Source: Spirochaetia bacterium
Lineage (GTDB): Bacteria > Spirochaetota > Spirochaetia > CADAEX01
Assembly (NCBI GenBank): GCA_963662795.1
Contig: OY759746.1
Span: 2,272,001 to 2,336,000, forward strand
Reading direction: 5' to 3'
DNA length: 64,000 bases
How positions within the stretch are numbered: the first letter of the stretch is position 1; every line of letters begins with the position of its first letter. Of this stretch, positions 18,476 to 44,569 are shown piece by piece. The translations under genes were made by a program, and so were the position numbers. The notes under the pieces are model-generated. The model did not search any database and had not been told where the DNA came from. It saw nothing but the letters and a program-made list of their open reading frames with translations.

Positions 18476-19048
18476 GTGCAAATGAAAACCGAGCTTGATG
18501 AAGCCAAGAAAGAAACCGCACAGTGCAGCTGCAGCGAAGATGAAGAATCTTTATATTCAGGTCTTGATGTGGTAATAGACGGGTTTATAGGTGTCCCCGG
18601 GGCCCTGATTCCGGTTCTCCAGTCCACGCAGAATATTTTCGGCTATCTGCCGGAAAAAGCGCTTAAGCATATAAGTGAAAGAATGAAGATACCATACAGT
18701 GAAGTAACAGGTGTTGTAACATTTTATTCATATTTTTCCACTGTTCCACGCGGGAAACACATAATCAGGGTCTGCCTTGGCACTTCCTGCTATGTCAGAG
18801 GGGGAAAAGAGGTACTGGAGGCGATCCAGAAAAAACTTTCAATTCCTGTGGGCGGCACTACTGTGGACAAGATGTTCTCACTGGAAGTCGGCAGATGTTT
18901 CGGTGCATGCGGTCTTGCGCCTACAATTTCAATAGACGGAGAAGTGTATAAAAAAGTAAAACCGACAAAAATAGGTGAAATAATTGAACCGTTTTATGCT
19001 GAAGCTGACGCTGAAGCTAATGCCGGTGCTGACAGGGAGGAGGTTTAA
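18476..19048 (+). CDS. hydC: NuoE-like [2Fe-2S] subunit (HydC) of hydrogenase 1
   Basis: VCLGTSCYVRG and CFGACGLAP thioredoxin-like 2Fe-2S motifs. Confidence 0.9.
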   Translation: MQMKTELDEAKKETAQCSCSEDEESLYSGLDVVIDGFIGVPGALIPVLQSTQNIFGYLPEKALKHISERMKIPYSEVTGVVTFYSYFSTVPRGKHIIRVCLGTSCYVRGGKEVLEAIQKKLSIPVGGTTVDKMFSLEVGRCFGACGLAPTISIDGEVYKKVKPTKIGEIIEPFYAEADAEANAGADREEV

Positions 19049-22000
19049 ATGGGTAAGGAAAAAAAATTGAAAAATAAAATAACCACTCTTGCCGATCTCG
19101 AAAAAATAAAACAGGAGTCCCTGAAAAGGATGGCTGTAAGACTTCAGGATCCGGCGGAAAAAGGGCTTCCCGGAGATACCCCTTTTCATATTATGTTCTG
19201 TTTCGGGACAGGGTGTCTTTCATCAGGCGCTGCCTTTGTAAAGAAGGCATTTGCAGAAAATCTTGAAAAAAACGGGCTTGCGGACAAGGTTACACTTGTA
19301 GAAACTGGCTGTAACGGATTCTGCGCCGGCGGGCCGATTGTTGTAGTCTATCCCGGAGGATATTTTTATCAGAAAGTCTCTCCTGAAGATGCTGTTGATA
19401 TTGTTGAAAGCCACCTTGTAAAAGGTAAACCTGTAAAGCGGCTTATGTTTCATAATCCTGTCAACGGGGAGGTAATACCCAAGTATAAGGATATTTACTT
19501 TTTCGCTCTCCAGAATCTGAGAGTTCTTCACAACAAAGGTCTTATATCCGCAGACAGTATCGATGATTATATAGCCCGTGACGGGTATTTCGGATTTTAT
19601 AAGGCGCTTAAAGAGCTGGAGCCGGACGGGATAATCAAGGAAATTGCTGAATCAGGCCTTAGAGGAAGGGGCGGCGCAGGCTTTACAACAGGAATGAAAT
19701 GGAAGTTCTGCAGCAGGACAGAAAGCAATAAAAAATACATTATCTGCAATGCTGATGAAGGGGACCCGGGAGCGTTCATGGATAGAAGTATTCTTGAGGC
19801 AGATCCCCATGCCGTACTTGAAGGAATGATGATAGGAGCAAGAGCGATTGGGGCAGATACCGGTTATATTTACTGCAGGGCGGAATATCCGCTTGCTATT
19901 CAGCGCCTGGAACACTCAATAAACGAATGCCGTGAAATGGGTCTTCTTGGTAAAAACATCCTTGGAACTGATTTTTCATTTGACATAAAGATTGCTCAGG
20001 GTTCAGGAGCATTTGTCTGCGGAGAAGAGACCGCACTTATGAGATCCATAGAAGGGAAAAGGGGAGAGCCGAGGCCCCGTCCTCCGTTTCCGGCTGTTAA
20101 AGGTCTTTTTGATAAACCTTCCGTACTTAATAATGTTGAAACATTCGGCAATGTCCCTCTCATAATAAAAAACGGCGCAAAGTGGTTCAGGGAAACCGGA
20201 ACTGAAAAATCTCCCGGGACAAAGATATTTGCGCTTACAGGGAATGTTAATAATATTGGCCTAGTCGAAGTAAATATGGGTACGCCGCTCGGAGATATCA
20301 TATATGAAATCGGGGGAGGGATCCCCAACGGGAAGAAGTTCAAGGCTGCCCAGATGGGAGGCCCGTCCGGCGGATGCATAACAAAAGAGCATCTTAATGT
20401 GCCGGTTGATTACGAATCAGTTATTGAACTTGGCGCCATAATGGGCTCAGGCGGACTTATCGTAATGGATGAAGACACCTGTATGGTGGACATGGCAAGG
20501 TTCTTTCTTGAATTCATCCAGGAAGAGTCCTGCGGAAAATGCGTTCCATGCCGCGTAGGAACAAAAAGGATGCTTGAGATTGTTACCCGGATATGCGAAG
20601 GGAAGGGAGAGCTCGAAGATATTGACAGACTTGTTTCGCTGGGAAATCAGATCAAGGATACGGCATTATGCGGTCTTGGTCAGACTGCCCCTAATCCTGT
20701 TCTTTCGACTATAAGGTATTTCAGGAGTGAATATGAGGCCCACATCCTTGAAAAGAGGTGTCCCGCCGGTGTATGTCCGAGTCTTGTAAGGGCCCCGTGT
20801 CAGAGCGGATGCCCGGCAAAGGTTGATATACCGTCATTTGTGGCTTTGACCGGCGACAAGAGATACGCTGAAGCGCTGCAGGTGCACAGGAACAGGAACC
20901 CGTTTGCGGCAATCTGCGCAAGGGTCTGCTTTCATACCTGTGAGGACAAGTGCAGAAGGGCAACGCTTGATGAATCTGTTTCGATCCGGGGAGTAAAAAG
21001 ATTCCTTGTTGATCAGGAAGTTATTGTCCAGAAGCCTGAAAGCAGAGAGAGCGAACGGAACGCAAAAAGAAAAATAGCTATTATCGGAGCAGGGCCTGCA
21101 GGTCTCTCCTGCGGATATTTTCTCGCAAGGCTTGGATACAAACCTAAAGTATTTGAATCGGAATTAAGGCCGGGCGGTATGCTTGTGCAGACTATTCCAT
21201 CCTACAGACTGCCCCGGGAAACACTTGCCCGTGAAATAAGAATGATAGAACAGCTTGGTGTTGATATTGAAACAGGTGTGTCCCTCGGTAAGGACTTTAC
21301 ATTGAAGAGCCTCGCTGATGAGGGGTATGAGGCTGTTTTCATGGGTGTCGGGGCGCCTGATCCCATTACCCTTGGACTTCTTGGAGAAGAAGCGGAAAAT
21401 GTAACAGACGCAATACCTTTCCTCAAGCAGTACAATATCAGGGGTTCTGTCCCGGTCGGGAAGAACGTAATAGTTATCGGAGGGGGAAACGCCGCAATTG
21501 ACGCCGCGAGAACTGCCCTCCGGCTCGGCGCTGAAAGTGTAAAGGTTGTTTACAGAAGAAGCCAGGGAGAGATGCCGGCATATGAAGAAGAAATTGATGA
21601 AGCTATTTCCGAAGGTGTTGTTCTTATGACATTGACACAGCCTGTTGAGGTCATAAAAAATGAGAAAGGCGCTGCTTCCGGCCTCAGGTGCATTCCCATG
21701 AAACTGGGCGAATATGACAGGACAGGAAGAAGAAGACCGACAGAAAAAGAGGGAGAAACATTCATAATTGATGCCGACCAGATAATTATCGCAATCGGCC
21801 AGAAACTTAAAACAGAAAAACTGCTCGGCGAAACAATGCCTGCCCTTACAAGACAGGGCTTTATCCAGACAAACCCGGTTACAGGCCAGACAAGCCTTCC
21901 GTGGCTTTTTGCCGGAGGCGATAACGCTACCGGTCCTGCTTCTGTTGTTAACGCAATAGCAGGCGGCGAGAAAGCGGCAGTAGGTATTCATGACTATCTT

Positions 22001-22273
22001 CTCGGGGAAGGCGAGCCTTTTTGGAGAGAGGAGCAGGTTCTTGATACTGAATATGATCCTGACGCGGATCCTGTTCCCTATCCGAGGGAAAAACAGAGAT
22101 CGATCGCTGTTGAGAGAAGAAGACATAATTTTGATGAAGTAGAACTGGCATGGAATGAAAGTGTAGCTGTCAGACAGTGCAAAAGATGCCTGAGATGTGA
22201 TTATGGAAAAGTTCCCGGTCCGCTTGTGGAAACAACGGTCCAGGTAGTAAGGGAGGTACCAATAAATGCCTAA
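19049..22273 (+). CDS. hydB: NuoF-like diaphorase (HydB) fused to GltD-like FAD/NADPH oxidoreductase, hydrogenase 1
   Basis: GLRGRGGAGF, CNADEGDPGAFMDR, GAFVCGEET, GGPSGG, ESCGKCVPCR; then PCQSGCP, CARVCFHTCEDKCRR, GAGPAG, GGGNAAID...YRRS, FAGGD. Confidence 0.9.
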   Translation: MGKEKKLKNKITTLADLEKIKQESLKRMAVRLQDPAEKGLPGDTPFHIMFCFGTGCLSSGAAFVKKAFAENLEKNGLADKVTLVETGCNGFCAGGPIVVVYPGGYFYQKVSPEDAVDIVESHLVKGKPVKRLMFHNPVNGEVIPKYKDIYFFALQNLRVLHNKGLISADSIDDYIARDGYFGFYKALKELEPDGIIKEIAESGLRGRGGAGFTTGMKWKFCSRTESNKKYIICNADEGDPGAFMDRSILEADPHAVLEGMMIGARAIGADTGYIYCRAEYPLAIQRLEHSINECREMGLLGKNILGTDFSFDIKIAQGSGAFVCGEETALMRSIEGKRGEPRPRPPFPAVKGLFDKPSVLNNVETFGNVPLIIKNGAKWFRETGTEKSPGTKIFALTGNVNNIGLVEVNMGTPLGDIIYEIGGGIPNGKKFKAAQMGGPSGGCITKEHLNVPVDYESVIELGAIMGSGGLIVMDEDTCMVDMARFFLEFIQEESCGKCVPCRVGTKRMLEIVTRICEGKGELEDIDRLVSLGNQIKDTALCGLGQTAPNPVLSTIRYFRSEYEAHILEKRCPAGVCPSLVRAPCQSGCPAKVDIPSFVALTGDKRYAEALQVHRNRNPFAAICARVCFHTCEDKCRRATLDESVSIRGVKRFLVDQEVIVQKPESRESERNAKRKIAIIGAGPAGLSCGYFLARLGYKPKVFESELRPGGMLVQTIPSYRLPRETLAREIRMIEQLGVDIETGVSLGKDFTLKSLADEGYEAVFMGVGAPDPITLGLLGEEAENVTDAIPFLKQYNIRGSVPVGKNVIVIGGGNAAIDAARTALRLGAESVKVVYRRSQGEMPAYEEEIDEAISEGVVLMTLTQPVEVIKNEKGAASGLRCIPMKLGEYDRTGRRRPTEKEGETFIIDADQIIIAIGQKLKTEKLLGETMPALTRQGFIQTNPVTGQTSLPWLFAGGDNATGPASVVNAIAGGEKAAVGIHDYLLGEGEPFWREEQVLDTEYDPDADPVPYPREKQRSIAVERRRHNFDEVELAWNESVAVRQCKRCLRCDYGKVPGPLVETTVQVVREVPINA

Positions 22274-24038
22274 AGCAGAAATAAACAACATGGAAATACA
22301 GTTTGAAGCCGGCGATACAATACTTAAGGCAGCCCATGCTTCAGGGATAGAGATACCCACACTTTGCTTTCTTGAGGGAAAAGATCCCCAGGGCGCATGC
22401 AGGGTATGCGTTGTCGAGATTGATAAAAACAAGCCTCTGGCTGTCGCGTGTGCTACGCCGATTATTGAAGGCATGAAGATCATGACCAATACCAAAAGGG
22501 TGCGGGAAGCGAGAAGGACCGTTGTCGAACTTCTTTTAAGCGAGCATGAAGGGAACTGTCAGTACTGCGACAGGGCTGAAGACTGTGAACTCAAAAAGCT
22601 GGCTTACCAGCTTGGAGTAAGTGAAATACGATACGAAGGGGAAAAACCTTTATCATGGATTGATGAGACAACACCGGCCCTTATAAGGGATCAGGCAAAA
22701 TGCATTAAATGCAGAAGATGTGTAACTGTATGCAATAATGTACAGGGTGTCGGCGCGCTGTTTCCCCAGGGACGCGGATATTCAACTGTTATCAGCACTG
22801 CCTTTGATTCTGGTCTTGATACTGTTGCATGCGTTCAGTGCGGCCAGTGCTCAGCTGTCTGCCCTGTCGGGGCTATTACTGAAAGAAACCATATTGATGC
22901 GGTTTGGAGAGCCATAGAGGATCCTGAAAAATTCGTTGTTGTCCAGACAGCTCCCGCAATCAGGGCAGCGCTGGGCGAGTGTTTCGGATATGAGCCGGGT
23001 ACCCTTGTTACAGGCAAGATGGTTTCCGCCCTGAGGCTATTGGGATTTGACAGGGTCTTTGATACAAACTTTACGGCAGACCTTACCATACTGGAGGAGG
23101 GGACAGAACTTCTTACAAGATTAAAAAGCGCGCTTGTTGATAAAAAGCCGGCTTCGTTTCCGATGTTCACCTCCTGCTCACCCGGATGGATTAAGTTCGC
23201 CGAGTATTTTTACCCGGAATTTCTTCCAAACCTTTCAACCTGCAAAAGCCCGCAACAGATGTTCGGCGCTGTAGCTAAAACATATTACGCTGAGAAAGCG
23301 GGTGTTGATCCGAAAAAAATGGTTGTTGTATCTGTAATGCCCTGTACCGCAAAGAAATTTGAAGCAGAAAGGCCTGAAATGGCATCCAGCGGAAGCAAGG
23401 ATGTTGATTATGTTCTCACTACACGGGAACTGGGGCGGATGATCCAGTCCGCAGGAATTGATTTCAAGGTCCTTCCCGACGGTAAAATCGACAGCCCGAT
23501 AGGGATGTCTTCAGGCGCGGCCGACATTTTCGCCAATACCGGCGGTGTAATGGAAGCGGCCCTCAGGACAGTACACGAGATAGTAACAGGCAGGGAACTT
23601 CCGATGGAGAATCTGCATGTGAAACCGGTTGAGGGACTTGCCGGAATCAAGGAGGCATCCGTGACTTTTACAGGCACGGTCCCTGACTGGAATTTCCTCG
23701 AGGGTGTTACGGCAAAAGTTGCTGTTGCCCACGGACTCGGGAACACAAGGACCCTTCTTGACAGCATCAACGAGGGGAAGAGCCAGTATCATTTTGTCGA
23801 GATCATGACCTGTCCCGGCGGGTGTATCGGAGGAGGAGGCCAGCCGCGCCTTACGACTGATGATGTCAGGCTGGCAAGGATCAGGGCAATTTACAAGGAA
23901 GATGAGGGTAAGGAAATAAGGAAATCACATATGAACCCTGAGATTTTAAGGATATATGAGGATTATCTTGTTAAACCGCTTGGAGAAAAATCTCACCATC
24001 TGCTTCATACTCACTATATTGAGAGATCCAGGGTGTAA
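22266..24038 (+). CDS. hydA: [FeFe]-hydrogenase group A catalytic subunit 1
   Basis: H-cluster motifs TSCSPGW, MPCTAKKFE, EIMTCPGGCIGGGGQP; N-terminal 2Fe-2S, His-ligated and 2x[4Fe-4S] motifs. Confidence 0.96.
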   Translation: MPKAEINNMEIQFEAGDTILKAAHASGIEIPTLCFLEGKDPQGACRVCVVEIDKNKPLAVACATPIIEGMKIMTNTKRVREARRTVVELLLSEHEGNCQYCDRAEDCELKKLAYQLGVSEIRYEGEKPLSWIDETTPALIRDQAKCIKCRRCVTVCNNVQGVGALFPQGRGYSTVISTAFDSGLDTVACVQCGQCSAVCPVGAITERNHIDAVWRAIEDPEKFVVVQTAPAIRAALGECFGYEPGTLVTGKMVSALRLLGFDRVFDTNFTADLTILEEGTELLTRLKSALVDKKPASFPMFTSCSPGWIKFAEYFYPEFLPNLSTCKSPQQMFGAVAKTYYAEKAGVDPKKMVVVSVMPCTAKKFEAERPEMASSGSKDVDYVLTTRELGRMIQSAGIDFKVLPDGKIDSPIGMSSGAADIFANTGGVMEAALRTVHEIVTGRELPMENLHVKPVEGLAGIKEASVTFTGTVPDWNFLEGVTAKVAVAHGLGNTRTLLDSINEGKSQYHFVEIMTCPGGCIGGGGQPRLTTDDVRLARIRAIYKEDEGKEIRKSHMNPEILRIYEDYLVKPLGEKSHHLLHTHYIERSRV

Positions 24039-24087
24039 ATTCTGTTTTTCCCGATAATTGAAACGGGAAAAGAACATAAATCGTGTT

Positions 24088-24140
24088 AAAAAAAAGAAAG
24101 GCTGCATGCGGATTTGCCCGCGCGCAGCCTTTTTTTATTT
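24088..24140. terminator. Bidirectional intrinsic terminator between the two hydrogenase operons
   Basis: A-run, AAAGGCTGC...GCAGCCTTT GC-rich stem, T-run. Confidence 0.8.
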
Positions 24141-24161
24141 CTTTATGAAAAAAACCTGATG

Positions 24162-25934
24162 CTAAACTGATTTCGGCGTATAGCTGGTATGCAGAAGATG
24201 ATGTGAAATCTCGCCCAGAGGCTTGATGAGAAAATTCCTGTACAGGGCCTGTATTTCGGGATTTTCATGCGATTTCCTTATCCCGAGATTTATATCCTCC
24301 CTGTATATCGATTCCGCCCTTTTTTTTCTTATCTCCCATGTGGTTGGGATGGGCTGTCCTCCTCCGCCGAGGCATCCTCCCGGGCATGCCATTACCTCAA
24401 TAAAAGCATAGGGGGATTTCCCTTCTTTTATCTCATCAAGAAGTTTTCTCGCGTTTTTAAGGGTATGGGCAACGGCAACCCGTACCGGCTTTCCTTTAAT
24501 ATTGATTTCAGCTTCTTTTATCCCTTCCATACCCCTTACATCCGCAAACTCAACCTTATCAAGGGTAGTACCTGTCAGCACCTCATAGGCTGTCCGCAGG
24601 GCTGCTTCCATTACACCTCCGGTTGCCCCGAATATTACAGCTGCCCCGGTTGATTTTCCAAGCGGATTGTCAAATTCCTCTTCCGGGAGCCCTGCAAAAT
24701 CAAGTCCGGTCTCCCTGAACATCCTCGCAAGCTCTCTTGTTGTAAGGGCATAATCCACATCCGGAAAACCTGCCCTGTTTGTAAGTTTTTTTCTCTCTTT
24801 CCAGTAGTGGAAAGCGGAATTCATTTCAGGCCTTTCTGCTTCATATTTCTTGGCGGTACAGGGCATTACAGATATGACCCTGATCTTTTCAGGGTCAAGG
24901 TCCGCCTGCCCGGCGTACCAGGTTTTTGCCAAAGCCCCGAACATCTGCTGCGGGCTCTTGCAGGTTGAGATATTTGCAAGCTGATCAGGGAAAAAGTGCT
25001 CAATGAATTTGATCCATCCGGGAGAGCAGGAGGTAATCATCGGGAGGGTTCCTCCTGTTGATATCCTTTTTATAAGCTCATGCCCCTCTTCCATTATTGT
25101 AAGGTCTGCCGTGAATTGTGTATCAAAAACCCTGTCAAATCCCAGTTTTCTGATTCCGGCTACCATTTTTCCTGTTACCAGGGCCCCGCTCTCCATCCCC
25201 ATGGCTTCTCCTATTCCAATGCGGATAGCCGGGGCGGTCTGTATAATGGTAAAAATATCAGGATCGTAAATATCCCGCCAGATGCTGCTGATATCTGATT
25301 TTTCAACAATTGCGCCGGTCGGGCAGACCAAAGAGCACTGACCGCAGTTGGTGCATACGGAGCTGCCCAGTCCCCTGTCCATGAATGTTGTTACACGGCT
25401 GTGAAGGCCCCGGCCTGTGACATCTATCGCGTTTACCGTCTGGATTTCGCTGCATACGCTTATGCACCTGTTGCAGAGGATGCATTTATTCGGGTCCCGG
25501 ATAAGAGAAGGGGAAGATGTATCGAGCGGCAGTGTTTTTGTCCTGGTCTTTGCGTAATGCTGTTCACGCACGCCGAGCTCCCATGCCAGTTTTTGCAGTT
25601 CACAATTCTGGTTCCTGTCGCATTTAAGGCAGTCATCAGGATGGTTGGCAAGGATAAGTTCCAGGTTTGTTTTTCTTGCTTTTCTTATTCTCTCGGAGTT
25701 TGTTGTTATTTCCATATCTGCCCAGACTGAATAGGAACATGAGCGGACAAGCTTTTTTGAGTCTTTTACTTCAATACAGCATATTGCGCAGGATGCGTTT
25801 GAAGCGACATCCTCCATAAAGCATAAATGGGGAATATTTATCCCTACCTCTTTGCAGGCATTAAGAATCGTGGTTCCCTCATCAACCAGGTAATCCTTTC
25901 CGTCAATAATTATGTTTATCTTTTTTCTCATCAT
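24162..25934 (-). CDS. hydA: [FeFe]-hydrogenase group A catalytic subunit 2
   Basis: TSCSPGW, MPCTAKKYE, EVMACPGGCLGGGGQP; same Fe-S architecture; start at MMRKK after GGAGG. Confidence 0.96.
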   Translation of the reverse strand: MMRKKINIIIDGKDYLVDEGTTILNACKEVGINIPHLCFMEDVASNASCAICCIEVKDSKKLVRSCSYSVWADMEITTNSERIRKARKTNLELILANHPDDCLKCDRNQNCELQKLAWELGVREQHYAKTRTKTLPLDTSSPSLIRDPNKCILCNRCISVCSEIQTVNAIDVTGRGLHSRVTTFMDRGLGSSVCTNCGQCSLVCPTGAIVEKSDISSIWRDIYDPDIFTIIQTAPAIRIGIGEAMGMESGALVTGKMVAGIRKLGFDRVFDTQFTADLTIMEEGHELIKRISTGGTLPMITSCSPGWIKFIEHFFPDQLANISTCKSPQQMFGALAKTWYAGQADLDPEKIRVISVMPCTAKKYEAERPEMNSAFHYWKERKKLTNRAGFPDVDYALTTRELARMFRETGLDFAGLPEEEFDNPLGKSTGAAVIFGATGGVMEAALRTAYEVLTGTTLDKVEFADVRGMEGIKEAEINIKGKPVRVAVAHTLKNARKLLDEIKEGKSPYAFIEVMACPGGCLGGGGQPIPTTWEIRKKRAESIYREDINLGIRKSHENPEIQALYRNFLIKPLGEISHHLLHTSYTPKSV

Positions 25935-28900
25935 CTGACACCTCCCGTACCGGAAAGCTTTATGTCGCACCTTAAGCACCTCATTGCCTCGCGCCGGGCC
26001 TGGTCTCCCATATAACCCAGGTTGATTTCCTGAAAATTCCCCTTCCTGTCTTTTACATTTAAATGCCTGCTCTCAATTCCCTCCGCAGATATTATCTCCT
26101 CAGGTATTTCATTGCCGTACTCAAATGTCCTGAACAGGGAGTCAAATCTGTGTTTACCTGTCAGGTCGAAATCAATTATTGAGGAAGCTGTTTTTGCAAG
26201 ACCCATGGCTTCGGCTGCAGTAGACGGGCCTGTTGTTACATCGCCGGCCGCATAAACCAGGGGTTTTCCTGTCCTGCAGGTATAGGGATTGATATAAGCT
26301 GTCCCTTTTTCCGTTGTTATTATTTTTTCCTGTTCAAGGAGGGCTGAATCTACCTTTTCGCCTACTGCAATTACGACAGTATCGCATTTAAGGACAGAGA
26401 TATTACCTGTTTTAACCGGTTTTCTTCTCCCTGACAAATCGAACTGTCCCCCTTCCATTTTCATGATTTCAATTGTTTCCACACTTCCGTCTTTGTTTCC
26501 GGTTATCCTTACAGGATTTGCCATAAACATGAATTTAATCCCCTCAGCTTCCGCCTCGGCAATTTCGCTCTTGTTCGCCGGCATGTCCTCTTTTGCCCTT
26601 CTGTAGGCGACAGTTACATCCGCCCCCGCTCTCCATAAAGATCTTGCGGTGTCTATGGCGACATTACCGCCGCCGATAATTACCGCTTTTTTACCGAGGG
26701 GAATCATCCTCTTTTTCTCCATGTTATCAAGCAGTTCCGTACCCTGAACCACCCCTTTCAGCTGCGATCCGGAAAGGTCAAAACCGATATGCTTATAGGA
26801 CCCGATGGCAAGAAAAACTGTGTCATATTCCTTTAAAAGAGAGTCTGTGTGTATATCCCTGCCGAGGGATTTGTTGAAGAGAAATTTGACCCCGAGTTTT
26901 TTAAAAATCTGAAGCTCTTTATCAAGAATTTCTTTCGGAAGCCTGTAGGAAGGGATACCGTAACGGAGGACTCCCCCTGCTTTCGGGTTCTGGTCATAGA
27001 CTGTAATACTGTGGCCGAGCCTGGAAAGATAAAAAGCCGCTGTAAGGCCCGCGGGACCTGCTCCGATAACTGCTATTTTTTTACCGGTTGACGGGAGTTT
27101 TTCCTTTAGAAGTTTATCATATATCTCGTTCTCCCTTCCCATCTTGTACATTGTGTCTGCCAGATACCTGTGAATTTCACCCTGATGCACCGGCTCGTCG
27201 ATTGTATCCCTCCTGCATCTCATCTGGCAGTGGAAATGGCATATTCTTCCGATTGTCCCCGGCAGCGGGTTATCGCGGAGTGTTGATTCAAAGGCTTCCT
27301 CAAGCCTGTCTTCCTTAAGCAGTGTGAGGTAGGCCGGTATGTCCATGTGCATGGGACATGAGTTTGAGCAAAGCGTTGTAAAGAGCGCTTCGCAAGTCCC
27401 TGCGCTGCAGTGGTGCCGCTGGATGTGCTCTTCATATTCATTCCTGAAATATTTAAGCGTTGTCAGTACCGGATTAGGGGCTGTCTGTCCAAGCCCGCAA
27501 AGGGCCGTATCGATAATAACATTGCCGAGCTCTTCCATCACAGCAAGGTCTGAATCCTCTCCTCCCCCTTTTGTAATTTTATTCAGCAGATTAAGCTCCT
27601 GCGAAAGCCCTTCGCGGCAGGGAACGCATTTTCCGCATGACTCTGAATTCGTGAACTCAATAAAATATCTTGCCACATCAACCATGCAGTTATCCTGGTC
27701 CATTACTACCATGCCGCCGGAACCCATAATGGCCCCGAGAGACGCAAGTGACTCATAATCTATCGGAGTCCCGAATTTTGATACCGGTATGCAGCCGCCC
27801 GACGGGCCGCCTGACTGTACCGCTTTTACCTTTTTTTCCTTTCCGGCGGCGCCGCCGCCAATTTCATAAACCAGAGTAAGAAGGGATTCCCCAAGAGGAA
27901 GCTCTGCAAGTCCCGTGTTTTTAACCTTTCCTACAAGGGAAAAGACTTTTGTCCCCGGGCTTTTTCCTGTACCTGTTTTTAAAAACCACTTGCTTCCTTT
28001 TGCAATAATCACGGGAATATTGCTCCAGGTTTCCACATTGTTGATATTTGTCGGATAACACATAAATCCGCACTGTGCGGGGAAAGGGGGCCTCGGTTTG
28101 GGTCTTCCGGCTTTTCCTTCAGCTGACGCAATCAGCGCTGTTTCCTCTCCGCAGACAAAAGCGCCGGCTCCCTCAACAATTGTAAGGTCAAAGATGAAGC
28201 TGGTGCCGGGTATTTTTGCCCCTATAAACCCAGCCTCCCGGGCCTGGCTTATTGCTTTCTTAAGTCTTTCGACCGCAAGGGGATATTCTGCCCGGACATA
28301 GATTATTCCCTCGTTCGCTCCCATTGCGTATGCGCCGATCAGCATCCCTTCAATGATCATGTGAGGATCGCTTTCTATTTCGTTCCTGTTCATGTATGCC
28401 CCGGGATCCCCTTCATCCGCGTTACAGATAATGTATTTCTTTTCCGCGGATTCTTTTCCCATAAGCGCCCATTTTACGCCTGTTGGAAAGCCGGCTCCGC
28501 CCCGGCCCCGGAGCCCCGATGCCTTTACTTCACCTATAACATCCTGAGGGCTCATTTCGGTAACGGCTTTTATAAATGCTGAATAACCACCCACGGCGAT
28601 GTATTCTTCGATTGATTCCGGATCAATAAGACCCGCATCCCTTAGTACTATTTTTTTCTGGCTTTTAAAAAAAGGTATCTCGTTCCATTCCGGAACACCT
28701 TTATAGCCGCTGCCGTAGCTGATATGGTGAGTATGATGGTCCCATTCTGAAATTTTGCACAGGATGAGTCTTTCCGGGAATGAAGCTTTTTCGATTCCTT
28801 TAATGATAGCATTAACATCTTTCTTCTGTACCCTGTTAAGCACCAGTAAAGGCTGTCCCGGTATGTTTATATTGACAAGCGGTTCTTTAGAGCAGTATCC

Positions 28901-29095
28901 CAGACATCCTGTTTTTCTTAATGTTATTCCCCCTTTTTGCCCCTTTAATCCTGTTTCAAATGCCTCATAAAGCTGGTCTGCTCCGTTACCGATGCCGCAG
29001 GTCCCCATTCCGATGGAGATTGAAGGAAGGTCGGGTTTTATTTTTTTTAAGCCTGCATTTTTCATTTTACTGATTTTTTTGATGTAATCTTTCAT
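25931..29095 (-). CDS. hydB: NuoF-like diaphorase (HydB) fused to GltD-like domain, hydrogenase 2
   Basis: GLRGRGGAGFPTG, CNADEGDPGAYMNR, GAFVCGEET, GGPSGG, ESCGKCVPCR; CSNSCP, GRICHFHCQMRCRR, GAGPAG, GGGNVAID...YRRA. Confidence 0.9.
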   Translation of the reverse strand: MKDYIKKISKMKNAGLKKIKPDLPSISIGMGTCGIGNGADQLYEAFETGLKGQKGGITLRKTGCLGYCSKEPLVNINIPGQPLLVLNRVQKKDVNAIIKGIEKASFPERLILCKISEWDHHTHHISYGSGYKGVPEWNEIPFFKSQKKIVLRDAGLIDPESIEEYIAVGGYSAFIKAVTEMSPQDVIGEVKASGLRGRGGAGFPTGVKWALMGKESAEKKYIICNADEGDPGAYMNRNEIESDPHMIIEGMLIGAYAMGANEGIIYVRAEYPLAVERLKKAISQAREAGFIGAKIPGTSFIFDLTIVEGAGAFVCGEETALIASAEGKAGRPKPRPPFPAQCGFMCYPTNINNVETWSNIPVIIAKGSKWFLKTGTGKSPGTKVFSLVGKVKNTGLAELPLGESLLTLVYEIGGGAAGKEKKVKAVQSGGPSGGCIPVSKFGTPIDYESLASLGAIMGSGGMVVMDQDNCMVDVARYFIEFTNSESCGKCVPCREGLSQELNLLNKITKGGGEDSDLAVMEELGNVIIDTALCGLGQTAPNPVLTTLKYFRNEYEEHIQRHHCSAGTCEALFTTLCSNSCPMHMDIPAYLTLLKEDRLEEAFESTLRDNPLPGTIGRICHFHCQMRCRRDTIDEPVHQGEIHRYLADTMYKMGRENEIYDKLLKEKLPSTGKKIAVIGAGPAGLTAAFYLSRLGHSITVYDQNPKAGGVLRYGIPSYRLPKEILDKELQIFKKLGVKFLFNKSLGRDIHTDSLLKEYDTVFLAIGSYKHIGFDLSGSQLKGVVQGTELLDNMEKKRMIPLGKKAVIIGGGNVAIDTARSLWRAGADVTVAYRRAKEDMPANKSEIAEAEAEGIKFMFMANPVRITGNKDGSVETIEIMKMEGGQFDLSGRRKPVKTGNISVLKCDTVVIAVGEKVDSALLEQEKIITTEKGTAYINPYTCRTGKPLVYAAGDVTTGPSTAAEAMGLAKTASSIIDFDLTGKHRFDSLFRTFEYGNEIPEEIISAEGIESRHLNVKDRKGNFQEINLGYMGDQARREAMRCLRCDIKLSGTGGVR

Positions 29096-29628
29096 GAATT
29101 TCTCCTGCGGGCAGTTTTTTTCGCGGATGAGAGTTTTTTGATAATTGATTCAAGTTTTTCGGAAGTCATGTGGCTGAATATAACGCCGTCGACAGCAATT
29201 ACCGGAGCAAGGGCGCACTGTCCGAAGCATGCGACAGTTCTGACTGTAAATCTCATGTCATCTGTCGTGTAGGATGTCTCGCCTCCTGTTTCCTCTTCAT
29301 TAAGGCCGAGTTTGATCATTATATCGGCAAGAAGCGCTCTTGACCCTCTGGTATGGCAGGCCGTACCCCTGCAGACTGTAACAGTATGGTCTCCCTGGGG
29401 TTTGAGATTGAAAAATGAATAGAATGTAATAACAGAGTAGATTCCTGAAAGCGGGACTTCCATTTTTTCAGCGACATAACGGATTGCAGGTTCTGTCAGA
29501 TAACTGTGGGGAGTCGCCGTCTGAATATCTTCAAGTACTGAAAGAAGATCTCCCGGTTTTCCCCTGTATCCTGCAATAATTGAATTAAAAAGTGAATTAT
29601 CGATTTGCTGAACTTTTGATGATTTCAC
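29092..29628 (-). CDS. hydC: NuoE-like [2Fe-2S] subunit (HydC) of hydrogenase 2
   Basis: VCRGTACHTRG and CFGQCALAP; GTG start with GGAGG RBS. Confidence 0.9.
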   Translation of the reverse strand: MKSSKVQQIDNSLFNSIIAGYRGKPGDLLSVLEDIQTATPHSYLTEPAIRYVAEKMEVPLSGIYSVITFYSFFNLKPQGDHTVTVCRGTACHTRGSRALLADIMIKLGLNEEETGGETSYTTDDMRFTVRTVACFGQCALAPVIAVDGVIFSHMTSEKLESIIKKLSSAKKTARRRNS

Positions 29629-38508: not shown

Positions 38509-39528
38509 TTATTCAGCAGCTAATGATTTTTCCAGAAATACGCCATGGGTTCCATAATCATTCCATTTAAGGCTTTTGGATTTCTTTAAGCACTGAGGCT
38601 GGAATCCGTCTATGGTTATTCTTGAATTGAGACTTTCCGAAAAAACATAATATTCTTTTTCATTTTTTTTAAGTATTCCTGAATATTCATGTTTTCCCTC
38701 TTCACGGCTGTCAATTTCTCCGACAAGGGTTTGGCGCATAACAGCATAAATGACATTTTTCCCGAGATTCAAATCAAGCCATTCTGTAGTTTTTATAAAC
38801 CCCGGCAGCTTACTGTGTTCCTTTGAAGAAGAATCCGGAGCTTTATTTCCCCTGTTTTGACTTATCAGCTCTGAAAGCCCGTAATGTTCGTTATTATAAG
38901 CCGCTTCATGAGGCAGCAGTCCTTCGTTGTCCGGAATATCAGCTGATGCTCCGTACTGAATCAGTGTTTTCGCGGCAGGAATATGCCCTCCCGCTGCCGC
39001 CTCCAGCAGGGGTGTGCTTCCGTTAACATTCTGTGTATCTACAGCCGCACCGCTTTCGAGCAGGAATTCCACAATATTGTTATGGCCGTACATGGCGGCA
39101 TACAGGAGCGGAGTGTTTCCGAATATATCGGGAGAATGCTTATCCCTGCACAGGGGGAGAAGTATTTCAACCATCGCGAGATGACCGAATCCGGCTGCCG
39201 CGTGAAGTACTCCGTAGCCGCTTCTGTCTTTTATATTAATATCTGCATTATGATCAATCAGGTGGCTTATATATTCAATATGCCCGGTTTTTGCCGCTAT
39301 CAGGGCAGGGGTTTCATTTTCACTGTTAACAGCGTTTACTTCCGCTCCGCTGTCAAGAAGCTCTCTGACAATTGTCATACTGCCCTTCCCGCAGGAAACA
39401 ATCAGCGGTGTATTGCCGTTTTTATCCCTGCAGTCAATATTTCTTATCTTTCTGATAATGGACAGCGCTTCTTCAGTATTACCACTATCAATTACCTTAA
39501 AAAGTTTATTTGATCTACTGAACAGCAT
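38509..39528 (-). CDS. Ankyrin-repeat protein with unrecognised C-terminal domain
   Basis: Repeated G-x-TPL...GA-x-VN ankyrin units over the first ~225 aa. Confidence 0.9.
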   Translation of the reverse strand: MLFSRSNKLFKVIDSGNTEEALSIIRKIRNIDCRDKNGNTPLIVSCGKGSMTIVRELLDSGAEVNAVNSENETPALIAAKTGHIEYISHLIDHNADINIKDRSGYGVLHAAAGFGHLAMVEILLPLCRDKHSPDIFGNTPLLYAAMYGHNNIVEFLLESGAAVDTQNVNGSTPLLEAAAGGHIPAAKTLIQYGASADIPDNEGLLPHEAAYNNEHYGLSELISQNRGNKAPDSSSKEHSKLPGFIKTTEWLDLNLGKNVIYAVMRQTLVGEIDSREEGKHEYSGILKKNEKEYYVFSESLNSRITIDGFQPQCLKKSKSLKWNDYGTHGVFLEKSLAAE

Positions 39529-43540: not shown

Positions 43541-44569
43541 TTGACCAGTGGAATAAGTGTCCCTATCATATACATAATGTCAAAACTGCCGGTTAAAGGA
43601 ATCCTGCTCTTTGCAGTAGTTTTATTTTTTTTGCTCCTGCCGCTCTATACCTGGGCTCAGGTCCTGCTTCCTTCTGCTGATAAAAAAAATATTGATATCG
43701 GGGATATTTCCGTTCATCTTAATGCCGGAATGCTTATCGGTACTGCAAATGAATATGTTTACAGCGGTGATTACACCTTAAGCCGGCTGATCTGGGAAAT
43801 AGATAATTTATATATGGCGGGCGGCGGGTTTTCTCTCAATAAAAACGGGCTGATTTCAATGCAGGCTGATTTATGGCTTAAGGTAATGGACGGCAGCGGA
43901 GTGATGGATGATTATGACTGGCTTGCCGGAGATCTTCCGTGGACACACTGGTCGCATCACCCTGATACTGCCGTAACTAAAGGGACAATTTTCGATCTCT
44001 GTTTTGAGATTGCGCCTGATCGGCTTAAGTATGAGTATTTAGGCTTCAGCGGTTTTGCAGGCTACAGGTTTTCAGATTTTAAATGGGAGTCAAGAGGCGG
44101 TTCCTATATTTATTCATCAGTCAACGAGGCAGGGACCGAGCTTACCGGATTCCGTAATCTTTCCGGTGATTTTAAAGACGGGGAGCCTGCAATATCATAC
44201 CGGCAGACATATAATCTCCCTTATCTCGGCCTGGGGGCTGTAGGGCGCTTAGGTAATTTCCGTCTTGCGGCAAAACTTATCGGAAGCCTGTTTGTTTTTG
44301 GAAAAGCGGTTGATAATCATCACATGAGAGATATGGTGACCTATGCCTGGTTTAACTGGGGACAGATGTTTTCTTCAGATCTTTCCGCACAATACTCCAT
44401 TACTCAGCATTCAGCTTTAAAAGCTGCATTCAGCTATTCTGCATACGGAAAACTGCGCGGCGATACTGAATATCACTTTGCCGACGGGAGTGTGATAACA
44501 TATGAAAACGCAGAAGGCGCGGATTTCGAAACAGTAATGTTCTCTCTTTCTTATGTATATGATTTTTAA
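43541..44569 (+). CDS. Omptin-family outer-membrane protease
   Basis: SRLIW, MDDYDW, WSHHPDT, ISYRQ..LPYLGL, DNH and terminal Phe; true start probably a downstream Met. Confidence 0.88.
   Translation: MTSGISVPIIYIMSKLPVKGILLFAVVLFFLLLPLYTWAQVLLPSADKKNIDIGDISVHLNAGMLIGTANEYVYSGDYTLSRLIWEIDNLYMAGGGFSLNKNGLISMQADLWLKVMDGSGVMDDYDWLAGDLPWTHWSHHPDTAVTKGTIFDLCFEIAPDRLKYEYLGFSGFAGYRFSDFKWESRGGSYIYSSVNEAGTELTGFRNLSGDFKDGEPAISYRQTYNLPYLGLGAVGRLGNFRLAAKLIGSLFVFGKAVDNHHMRDMVTYAWFNWGQMFSSDLSAQYSITQHSALKAAFSYSAYGKLRGDTEYHFADGSVITYENAEGADFETVMFSLSYVYDF

Follow-up and report, generated by a model that had tools for sequence, protein, structure and literature searches.

Fermenters and syntrophs rely chiefly on HydABC-type enzymes to balance reduced nicotinamide adenine dinucleotide (NADH) plus ferredoxin against H2, and the mechanism of electron bifurcation in these enzymes is still debated. 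Two hydrogenases of this type are encoded by a pair of convergent three-gene operons occupying positions 18476-29628 of a 64,000-nucleotide stretch of DNA from a Spirochaetia bacterium (assembly GCA_963662795.1, contig OY759746.1, positions 2,272,001 to 2,336,000 of the forward strand), hereafter called the window. Their HydB subunits, hydB1 and hydB2, run on from a NuoF-like core into a GltD-like module predicted to bind flavin adenine dinucleotide (FAD) and the phosphorylated dinucleotide NADPH. In the bifurcating HydABC complexes, e.g., those from A. woodii (PDB code 7q4v), T. kivui (8a6t) and T. maritima (7p5h), HydB ends in a C-terminal 2x[4Fe-4S] domain, B3/B4, at which the reduction of ferredoxin has been located (PMC11829005), and enzymes devoid of B3/B4 are described as non-bifurcating NADH hydrogenases (PMC7311640, PMC11406978). 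The HydAB/HydABC enzymes of Syntrophus aciditrophicus and Syntrophomonas wolfei likewise possess a HydB without B3/B4 and use no ferredoxin but, unlike the HydB subunits of the window, carry no added module (PMC7311640); no reduction of NADP+ was found for the S. aciditrophicus HydAB (<0.01 U/mg, PMC7311640).

The GltD-like module itself is known from the StnABC/NfnABC transhydrogenases of S. ovata (8oh5), C. saccharolyticus (9bov) and T. sibiricus (9n5u), where it is inserted in a NuoG-like A subunit lacking the H-cluster (named StnC in S. ovata and NfnA in the two other species), whereas the BfuB subunit keeps its B3/B4 domain for ferredoxin. Its attachment to a NuoF-type subunit has also been reported. 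An "enlarged beta-subunit with a GltD domain" was mentioned for Vallitalea guaymasensis in 2018 (Microorganisms, PMC6163223), and a paper of 2024 devoted to the Hydrogenedentota (mSystems, PMC11406978) defined a "sub-type I BfuB", in which B3/B4 is replaced by a DPD_II FeS plus FAD/NAD(P) domain and which goes with a BfuA of M3a type, with homologues in Spirochaetota, Planctomycetota, Kiritimatiellota and others; the same paper states that sub-type I lacks biochemical validation. The proteins of the window correspond to the text description of sub-type I BfuABC, with the same domain swap (Fer4_20 and Pyr_redox_2 following NADH_4Fe-4S) and likewise a Ser as the fifth residue of the P1 motif (TSCSPGW). 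The novelty implied by the preliminary description of this DNA, made from the nucleotide sequence, therefore does not hold, the architecture having been described from sequence in 2018 and 2024; as for a biochemically characterised NuoF-GltD hydrogenase, none was found in the full-text literature, although subscription journals or supplements could hold one. The locus encodes a real and intact enzyme variant, the architecture of which was already known from sequence.

The domains recognised by Pfam in hydB1 and hydB2 consist of Complex1_51K (E 2e-45 and 7e-48, respectively), SLBB and NADH_4Fe-4S, followed by Fer4_20 (E 5e-20 and 1.5e-21) and Pyr_redox_2 (E 7e-31 and 1e-37), the latter two forming the domain pair of GltD, NfnB and DPD. 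In both proteins, the NuoF part retains its motifs (GDPGAFM in hydB1, GDPGAYM in hydB2, and GGPSGG) and is closed by an H-x5-C-x-A-G-x-C site (H565..C576 in hydB1, H557..C568 in hydB2), beyond which the module exhibits the motifs GAGPAG, GGGNAA (hydB1) or GGGNVA (hydB2), and YRR. The preliminary description had pointed to these motifs and to a GltD-like continuation after the H-x5-C-x-A-G-x-C site in both HydB copies, and the Pfam domains, together with the alignment to solved chains, bear it out at a level well outside what chance would produce. Residues 47-582 of hydB1, which is encoded by a single uninterrupted reading frame, match the solved HydB/BfuB chains (7t2r_B from the NiFe-HydABCSL complex, E 2e-239; 7q4v_B, E 1e-220), and the residue-level alignment indicates that identity to these chains persists through the stretch "...EAHI..K.CPAGVC..L", which corresponds to the B2 site where Zn is bound via three Cys and one His (2025 paper on the C. 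saccharolyticus NfnABC, PMC11829005). Past B2, the canonical chains proceed to the two C-x2-C-x2-C-x3-CP motifs of B3/B4 and hydB1 to "VRAPCQSGCPA", the beginning of the GltD module, so that the swap point falls at residues 579-581 of hydB1. Two C-x2-C-x2-C-x3-C repeats occur in each of the canonical HydB (598 residues) and BfuB (597 residues) encoded elsewhere in the same genome; no such repeat was found after the core of the fused proteins, the cassettes of which begin at residues 581 (hydB1) and 573 (hydB2). In both copies, a complete GltD-type module is entered eight residues past the last Cys of the B2 site (C576 in hydB1), so that its first cluster ligand comes at the place of the B3 ligand in the canonical HydB sequence. 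At the level of the sequence, the ferredoxin-docking 2x[4Fe-4S] domain has been swapped for an intact FAD/NADPH module, while the site for NAD(H) and flavin mononucleotide (FMN) has been kept.

With respect to the bifurcating HydABC enzymes and the NiFe-HydABCSL (7t2r), HydA, HydC and the HydB core of the window all match their counterparts; the N-terminal domain is shared with HydABC, as are the motifs for FMN/NADH, B1 and B2, and the difference resides in a FAD/NADPH cassette of approximately 470 residues standing in the place of the C-terminal ferredoxin-reducing domain. The N-terminal domain of hydB2 contains only three conserved Cys (119/120 in the hydB2 set defined below), scores 20.8 bits against PF01257, under the cut-off of 24.8, and in its three Cys resembles the Nfn-type BfuB of the same genome. 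Over their full length, hydB1 and hydB2 share 42% identity.

The module is described more precisely as a permuted cassette of the Stn/Nfn-Bfu type. Residues 581-1051 of hydB1 align over the full length with residues 101-567 of the C. saccharolyticus NfnA (9bov_A, E 4e-105) and with residues 101-566 of the S. ovata StnC (8oh5_C, E 7e-93), and the cassette also matches NfnB (4ylf_B, E 1.6e-91; 5jca_L, E 9e-81). The segment "RRxNFxEV...RCLxC", however, is C-terminal in hydB1 (1020-1051), StnC and NfnA but N-terminal (12-43) in the NfnB chain 4ylf_B. The position of this segment and the whole-length alignment together identify the module as the cassette of StnABC/NfnABC, with the same permuted order and the same boundaries (R-x-P-C ... 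R-C-L-x-C) but on another subunit, and the cassette of hydB2 displays the permuted topology too. Of the "GltD/NfnB-like" module announced by the preliminary description, the GltD-like FAD/NADPH part therefore stands, whereas the likeness to NfnB gives way to StnC/NfnA; its location on the B subunit next to a HydA that keeps its H-cluster motifs, as opposed to the NuoG-like subunit of StnABC, was correctly seen. NfnAB/NfnSL proper are distinguished from the window proteins by the position of the segment, by a Glu where the window has Lys or His, and by the NfnA-like gene that is lacking in the neighbourhood here.

An AlphaFold2 (AF2) model of hydB1, built from an alignment of 59 sequences, reaches a mean predicted local distance difference test score (pLDDT) of 87.7 and a predicted template-modelling score of 0.83, with a pLDDT of ~85-93 in the tail. 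Residues 580-1056 of the model superimpose on 9bov_A (Z 47.7, root-mean-square deviation 1.9 Å, 453 residues aligned) and on 8oh5_C (Z 45.6), and residues 46-582 on the C. saccharolyticus NfnB (9bp5_B, Z 47.3, 1.7 Å, 525 residues aligned). For the BfuB chains 9mqx_B and 9n5u_B, the alignment extends as far as model residues 638-640, inside the FeS subdomain of the cassette; these ends of the aligned ranges faintly hint that, in the model, the FeS subdomain might sit where B3/B4 sits.

To assess conservation, hydB1 and hydB2 were each searched against a set of 5.8 billion proteins, and for each the 120 best of at least 8000 candidates were kept. The best matches of hydB1 (1006-1088 residues) come from Planctomycetota, Hydrogenedentes, Lentisphaerota, Spirochaetales, Omnitrophota and Chitinispirillaceae, those of hydB2 (956-1063 residues, all containing both sets of domains) from Sphaerochaeta (S. 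pleomorpha, 66%), Paludibacter, Bacteroidota and Goldbacteria. The alignment of clade A comprises 121 rows, i.e., hydB1 (P0001), hydB2 (P0002) and the 119 best matches of hydB1, and that of clade B, the hydB2 set, 120 rows. In clade A, conservation reaches 120-121 of the 121 rows for the FMN/NADH loops, for the ligands of B1 and B2, for the eight Cys of the cassette and for the motifs GxGxxG, GGGNxA and YRR, apart from some Ala/Gly/Ser exchanges and from the B1 Cys column C501 (97/121), where the dip is probably an alignment artefact. The B2 ligands C478, H565, C571 and C576 occur in 121/121 rows and their equivalents in hydB2 in 120/120. In clade B, all rows (120/120) agree at the eight Cys proposed to ligate the cassette clusters, at the ligands of B1 and B2, and in GxGxxG and YRR, and variation concerns the Phe F203 of the FMN/NADH loop (99/120) and G809 of GGGN, replaced by Ala in 75/120 rows. 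The YRR motif is common to the NADPH enzymes StnC, C. saccharolyticus NfnA and T. maritima NfnB.

A single position of the cassette deserves particular attention. The FAD-proximal [4Fe-4S] cluster has as its fourth ligand a Lys (K170) in the non-bifurcating Stn/Nfn-Bfu enzymes and a Glu in the bifurcating NfnB (PMC10482914, PMC11829005). In the alignments, the corresponding residue is K650 in hydB1, H642 in hydB2 and Glu in the T. maritima NfnB. Lys is found in 120/121 rows of clade A, the lone exception being hydB2 itself, and His in 120/120 rows of clade B; a third fused lineage from the library of representatives (P0377 and P0309, ERF) exhibits the Glu of the bifurcating NfnB, and on the NuoF-core tree this pair (100% support) stands well apart from the clades of the two window copies. 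The 3Cys+Lys proximal site and the BfuBC-type core of hydB1 are those of StnABC/NfnABC, and hydB2 has His in the place of Lys. K650 and H642 are accordingly proposed as cluster ligands from their aligned positions. The occurrence of Lys or His where NfnB possesses Glu argues, at least for the two copies of the window, against the FAD functioning as a second, NfnB-like bifurcation centre.

On the side of the catalytic subunit, both HydA proteins exceed the cut-off of the NCBIfam model FeFe_hydrog_A6 (876 bits for hydA1 and 866 for hydA2, cut-off 765), the best PDB match of hydA1 is the A. woodii HydA1 (7q4v_A, E 9e-185), and the H-cluster motifs L2 and L3 are intact, with L1 read as the variant TSCSPGW in both. 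The retention of the H-cluster put forward by the preliminary description is consistent with these motifs. A HydA with H-cluster motifs and a NuoE-like HydC, as expected for group A3, occur in both operons. Group A2, which the HydDB classification defines by a neighbour of HydA containing GltD "but not NuoF" (PMC5037454), does not apply, the neighbour in the window comprising NuoF plus GltD.

Taken as a whole, this anatomy suggests a soluble, ferredoxin-free HydABC-type [FeFe] hydrogenase that would connect H2 with the NAD(H) as well as the NADP(H) couple, a reading considered slightly more probable than its contrary, the mode of coupling being left open; a coupling of H2 to the two nucleotides is plausible as the most economical interpretation of the domains. 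Each complex would possess two nucleotide sites, the FMN/NAD(H) site of the NuoF core and the FAD/NADP(H) site of the Stn-type cassette at the place of B3/B4. Electrons would travel between the H-cluster, the FeS chain of HydA, the [B1-FMN-C1] centre and the distal [4Fe-4S] cluster of the cassette (predicted ligands C584, C635, C1047 and C1050), and from there to the FAD-proximal [4Fe-4S] cluster (C588, C627, C631 plus K650 or H642), the FAD and NADP(H). The net reaction would read 2 H2 + NAD+ + NADP+ <-> NADH + NADPH + 2 H+. In a fermenter equipped with PFOR and Rnf, it would probably run towards H2, with NADPH, not reduced ferredoxin, helping to pull the oxidation of NADH; in the reverse direction, H2 would feed both nucleotide pools.

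Several observations weigh against this reading. From the E' values of NADH (-280 mV), NADPH (-380 mV), ferredoxin (-500 mV) and H2 (-414 mV) (PMC9304861), Nernst arithmetic gives an H2 ceiling of ~145 Pa for NADH plus NADPH, compared to ~3 Pa for NADH alone and ~0.15 bar for NADH plus ferredoxin, so that the benefit of coupling is real but small; NADPH could serve as a weaker stand-in for ferredoxin in pulling the oxidation of NADH. Moreover, the 3.93-Mb single-contig genome, with seven Fe_hyd_lg_C matches, also encodes a canonical HydABC cluster (hydC-x-x-hydB-hydA, the HydA of 583 residues with the motif TSCCPAW) and an Nfn-Bfu operon (L001; bfuC-bfuB-bfuA, the 684-residue BfuA being PRK12814-like), the two of which could between them fulfil the same function, in addition to a true gltBD pair, PFOR and Rnf. 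Owing to the presence of a ferredoxin metabolism and of a separate NADPH/NAD/ferredoxin transhydrogenase, the fused enzymes are additions to these systems and not substitutes for them. Finally, the fused B subunit is not hydrogenase-specific. Among 76 loci from one-per-species genomes, 13 contain the direct fusion, followed downstream by a HydA H-cluster domain in four cases and by none in six (over at least 2.9 kb downstream), while three end too early. In a metagenome-assembled genome (MAG) of Planctomycetota (L066:3854-9822), the partner is a 933-residue formate-dehydrogenase-like molybdopterin protein, and in a Promethearchaeota MAG (L067:4001-10818) the fusion precedes a 237-residue 2Fe-2S protein, a 526-residue protein with a Glu_synthase domain and a glutamate dehydrogenase. 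Such non-hydrogenase partners point to a general two-nucleotide module; in the window, both partners of the fused HydB are true HydA proteins.

A narrower version of the ferredoxin-free reading, which is advanced tentatively as a possible but doubtful proposal, assumes that NADP(H) takes the place of ferredoxin as the low-potential partner of [B1-FMN-C1], with an obligate 1:1 coupling of NAD and NADP and with paralogues tuned by the Lys, His or Glu ligand. NADH and NADPH would then be confurcated to 2 H2, or the electrons of H2 split 1:1 between NAD+ and NADP+, and the paralogues would be set for different potentials or directions.

It is unlikely, though less so than the alternatives that follow, that the two activities merely share a scaffold without being coupled, NADH (at the FMN) or NADPH (at the FAD) being accepted independently so as to form a dual-specificity redox valve or an H2-mediated transhydrogenase. 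The standard potentials of both acceptors lie above that of H2, the HydAB(C) enzymes without B3/B4 run on NADH alone (PMC7311640), and the Stn/Nfn-Bfu cassette is a plain, non-bifurcating entry module for NADPH (PMC10482914). However, the fused proteins have kept Bfu features that non-bifurcating relatives often lose (PMC11406978), namely the B2 ligands conserved throughout both sets, the N-terminal thioredoxin-like domain and HydC, and the point at which the cassette joins HydB is precisely the hinge of the mobile low-potential arm.

Quite improbable is a four-substrate Hyd-Nfn hybrid, in which an NfnB-like FAD would bifurcate the electrons of NADPH while a cluster of the cassette would still reduce free ferredoxin. 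The homology of the cassette to NfnB, the FAD "second bifurcation centre" postulated in PMC11406978, the ferredoxin-linked PFOR and Rnf of the genome and the Glu of the lineage P0377/P0309 all speak in its favour. They are opposed by the Lys (as in the non-bifurcating StnC and C. saccharolyticus NfnA, PMC10482914) or His of the window copies, by the permuted Stn/Nfn-Bfu topology, unlike that of NfnB, by the lack of any NfnA-like gene adjoining the operons, and by the distal cluster, which is needed as a link to the core and hence less likely to be available to ferredoxin.

A dead HydA, its Ser in TSCSPGW replacing a cubane-ligating Cys, within an Stn-like NADH/NADPH transhydrogenase was suspected from the occurrence of this motif in both partners of the fused HydB (TSCCPAW in the canonical HydA) and from the catalytically dead NuoG-like scaffold that StnC represents, but is very improbable and was set aside, since the active, structurally solved A. 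woodii HydA1 aligns with the same TSCSPGW, four of five sub-types commonly have Ser here (PMC11406978), L2 and L3 are intact and the hydrogenase cut-off is exceeded by more than 100 bits. The contrast in L1 between the window pair and the canonical HydA (L002:6176-7927) may indicate that a Ser-type HydA goes with particular types of HydB.

The history of the fusion was approached by means of two trees. Of the 150 top-scoring 50%-identity representatives for the NuoF part alone, 12 match the hidden Markov model (HMM) of the cassette, 3 of them over its full length. The NuoF-core tree comprises 127 rows, 26 of them fused (19 added from the two homologue lists), after 44 of 171 rows had been dropped for an incomplete core. 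The fused rows are scattered over the tree (6 changes, at least 2 of which are required by supported branches), and the two window copies belong to separate supported clades amid ferredoxin-type HydB. Several independent origins of the fusion, considered as an explanation, were not upheld: a single fused clade is not rejected by the approximately unbiased (AU) test (log-likelihood difference 53.4, p 0.237), and in the cassette tree (35 rows) the B-borne cassettes require a single change (support 62), the two clades being sisters (SH-aLRT 91). The data are thus compatible with one ancient fusion, after which the forms diverged. Fused genes occur in 11 of 31 related genomes; within the same family, they were found in 3/3 genomes of genus g1 (both types adjacent, as in the window) and 3/3 of g4, and in 0/8 of g2 and 0/5 of g3.

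Both PMC6163223 and PMC11406978 are sequence-only descriptions, and the permuted topology, the Lys/His/Glu series and the adjacent, divergent paralogous operons are absent from their available text. What is added here, from sequence comparison, consists of the assignment of the cassette to the permuted Stn type, the ligand series, and the occurrence of Lys-type and His-type operons side by side in a genome also endowed with canonical HydABC and NfnABC. If the proposed link between H2 and NADPH is true, it would represent an unrecognised connection for anaerobic redox models, as the fusion is present in many phyla, and the two-electron NADPH/FAD module would offer a clean test of whether [B1-FMN-C1] requires a one-electron, low-potential acceptor. 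The variation at a single ligand provides a handle for mutagenesis and, if the tuning of the paralogues is true, would amount to a natural three-way experiment in which Lys, His or Glu sets the behaviour of the GltD/Nfn module.

The features of the two operons, each arranged in the order hydC-hydB-hydA, are collected in Table 1.

Table 1. Genes, domains and sites of the two convergent hydrogenase operons, with positions counted from the first nucleotide of the window.
Feature	Position	Strand	Basis
hydC1, NuoE-like subunit (190 residues), C1 [2Fe-2S] site	18476..19048	+	PF01257 E 9.5e-46; NCBIfam HoxE/NuoE models
hydB1, NuoF::GltD fusion (1074 residues), clade A, Lys type	19049..22273	+	Pfam, NCBIfam and PDB matches; AF2 model
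hydB1 NuoF core (residues 170-580): FMN/NAD(H), B1 [4Fe-4S], B2 (C478, H565, C571, C576)	19556..20788	+	
hydB1 GltD cassette (residues 581-1051): two [4Fe-4S], FAD (GAGPAG), NADPH (GGGNAA...YRR), C-terminal RNFxEV...RCLRC tail	20789..22201	+	
K650 codon, aligned with K170, the Lys that ligates the FAD-proximal cluster of StnC and C. saccharolyticus NfnA	20996..20998	+	
hydA1, [FeFe]-hydrogenase catalytic subunit (590 residues); motifs TSCSPGW, MPCTAKKFE, EIMTCPGGCIGGGGQP	22266..24038	+	
G+C-rich hairpin between the convergent hydA genes, A-run on one side and T-run on the other	24088..24140	.	Read directly from the sequence
hydA2, catalytic subunit of the second [FeFe] hydrogenase, GTG-started open reading frame of 605 residues	24162..25979	-	FeFe_hydrog_A6; TSCSPGW
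hydB2, NuoF::GltD fusion (1054 residues), clade B, His type	25931..29095	-	
hydB2 GltD cassette (residues 573-1044)	25964..27379	-	Cassette HMM envelope 573-1044
H642 codon, residue aligned with K650 of hydB1	27170..27172	-	
hydC2, NuoE-like subunit (178 residues)	29092..29628	-	PF01257 E 5.5e-42

The listed GTG start of hydA2 creates a 49-nucleotide overlap with hydB2 (25931-25979). The FeFe_hydrog_A6 match begins at residue 21, and Met16, the ATG of which overlaps the stop codon of hydB2, is probably the real start; the overlap suggests translational coupling. The hairpin separating the two hydA genes is a probable bidirectional intrinsic terminator; it is absent from the list returned by the terminator pattern scan, its strong stem being seen on direct reading.

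A few minor observations were made on related loci. Two small open reading frames (192 and 130 residues, L002:3383-4346) separate hydC and hydB in the canonical cluster, and another one of 908 residues (L002:7989-10715) lies past hydA; none of the three has an NCBIfam match at E 1e-10. The best-scoring representatives of the NuoF part (P0245, 738 residues, and P0248, 776 residues) end in C-terminal tails of 165-211 residues containing neither the cassette nor the 2x[4Fe-4S] domain, nor any Pfam match. In one related genome, the fused hydB (G026:C109:3614-6634) displays an in-frame TAA inside the match, which could reflect a broken gene or an assembly error. A search for sequencing runs returned five of the contig type, from two studies, and none of RNA. 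No functional link to the hyd operons was found for the flanking genes of the window (tig, clpP, clpX, and those for a recombination ATPase, a CBS protein and a NUDIX protein). Farther along, and unrelated to the hydrogenases, the window encodes an ankyrin-repeat protein (339 residues, 38509-39528, Ank_2 E 1e-35) and an outer-membrane protease of the omptin family (342 residues, 43541-44569, E 6.5e-47).

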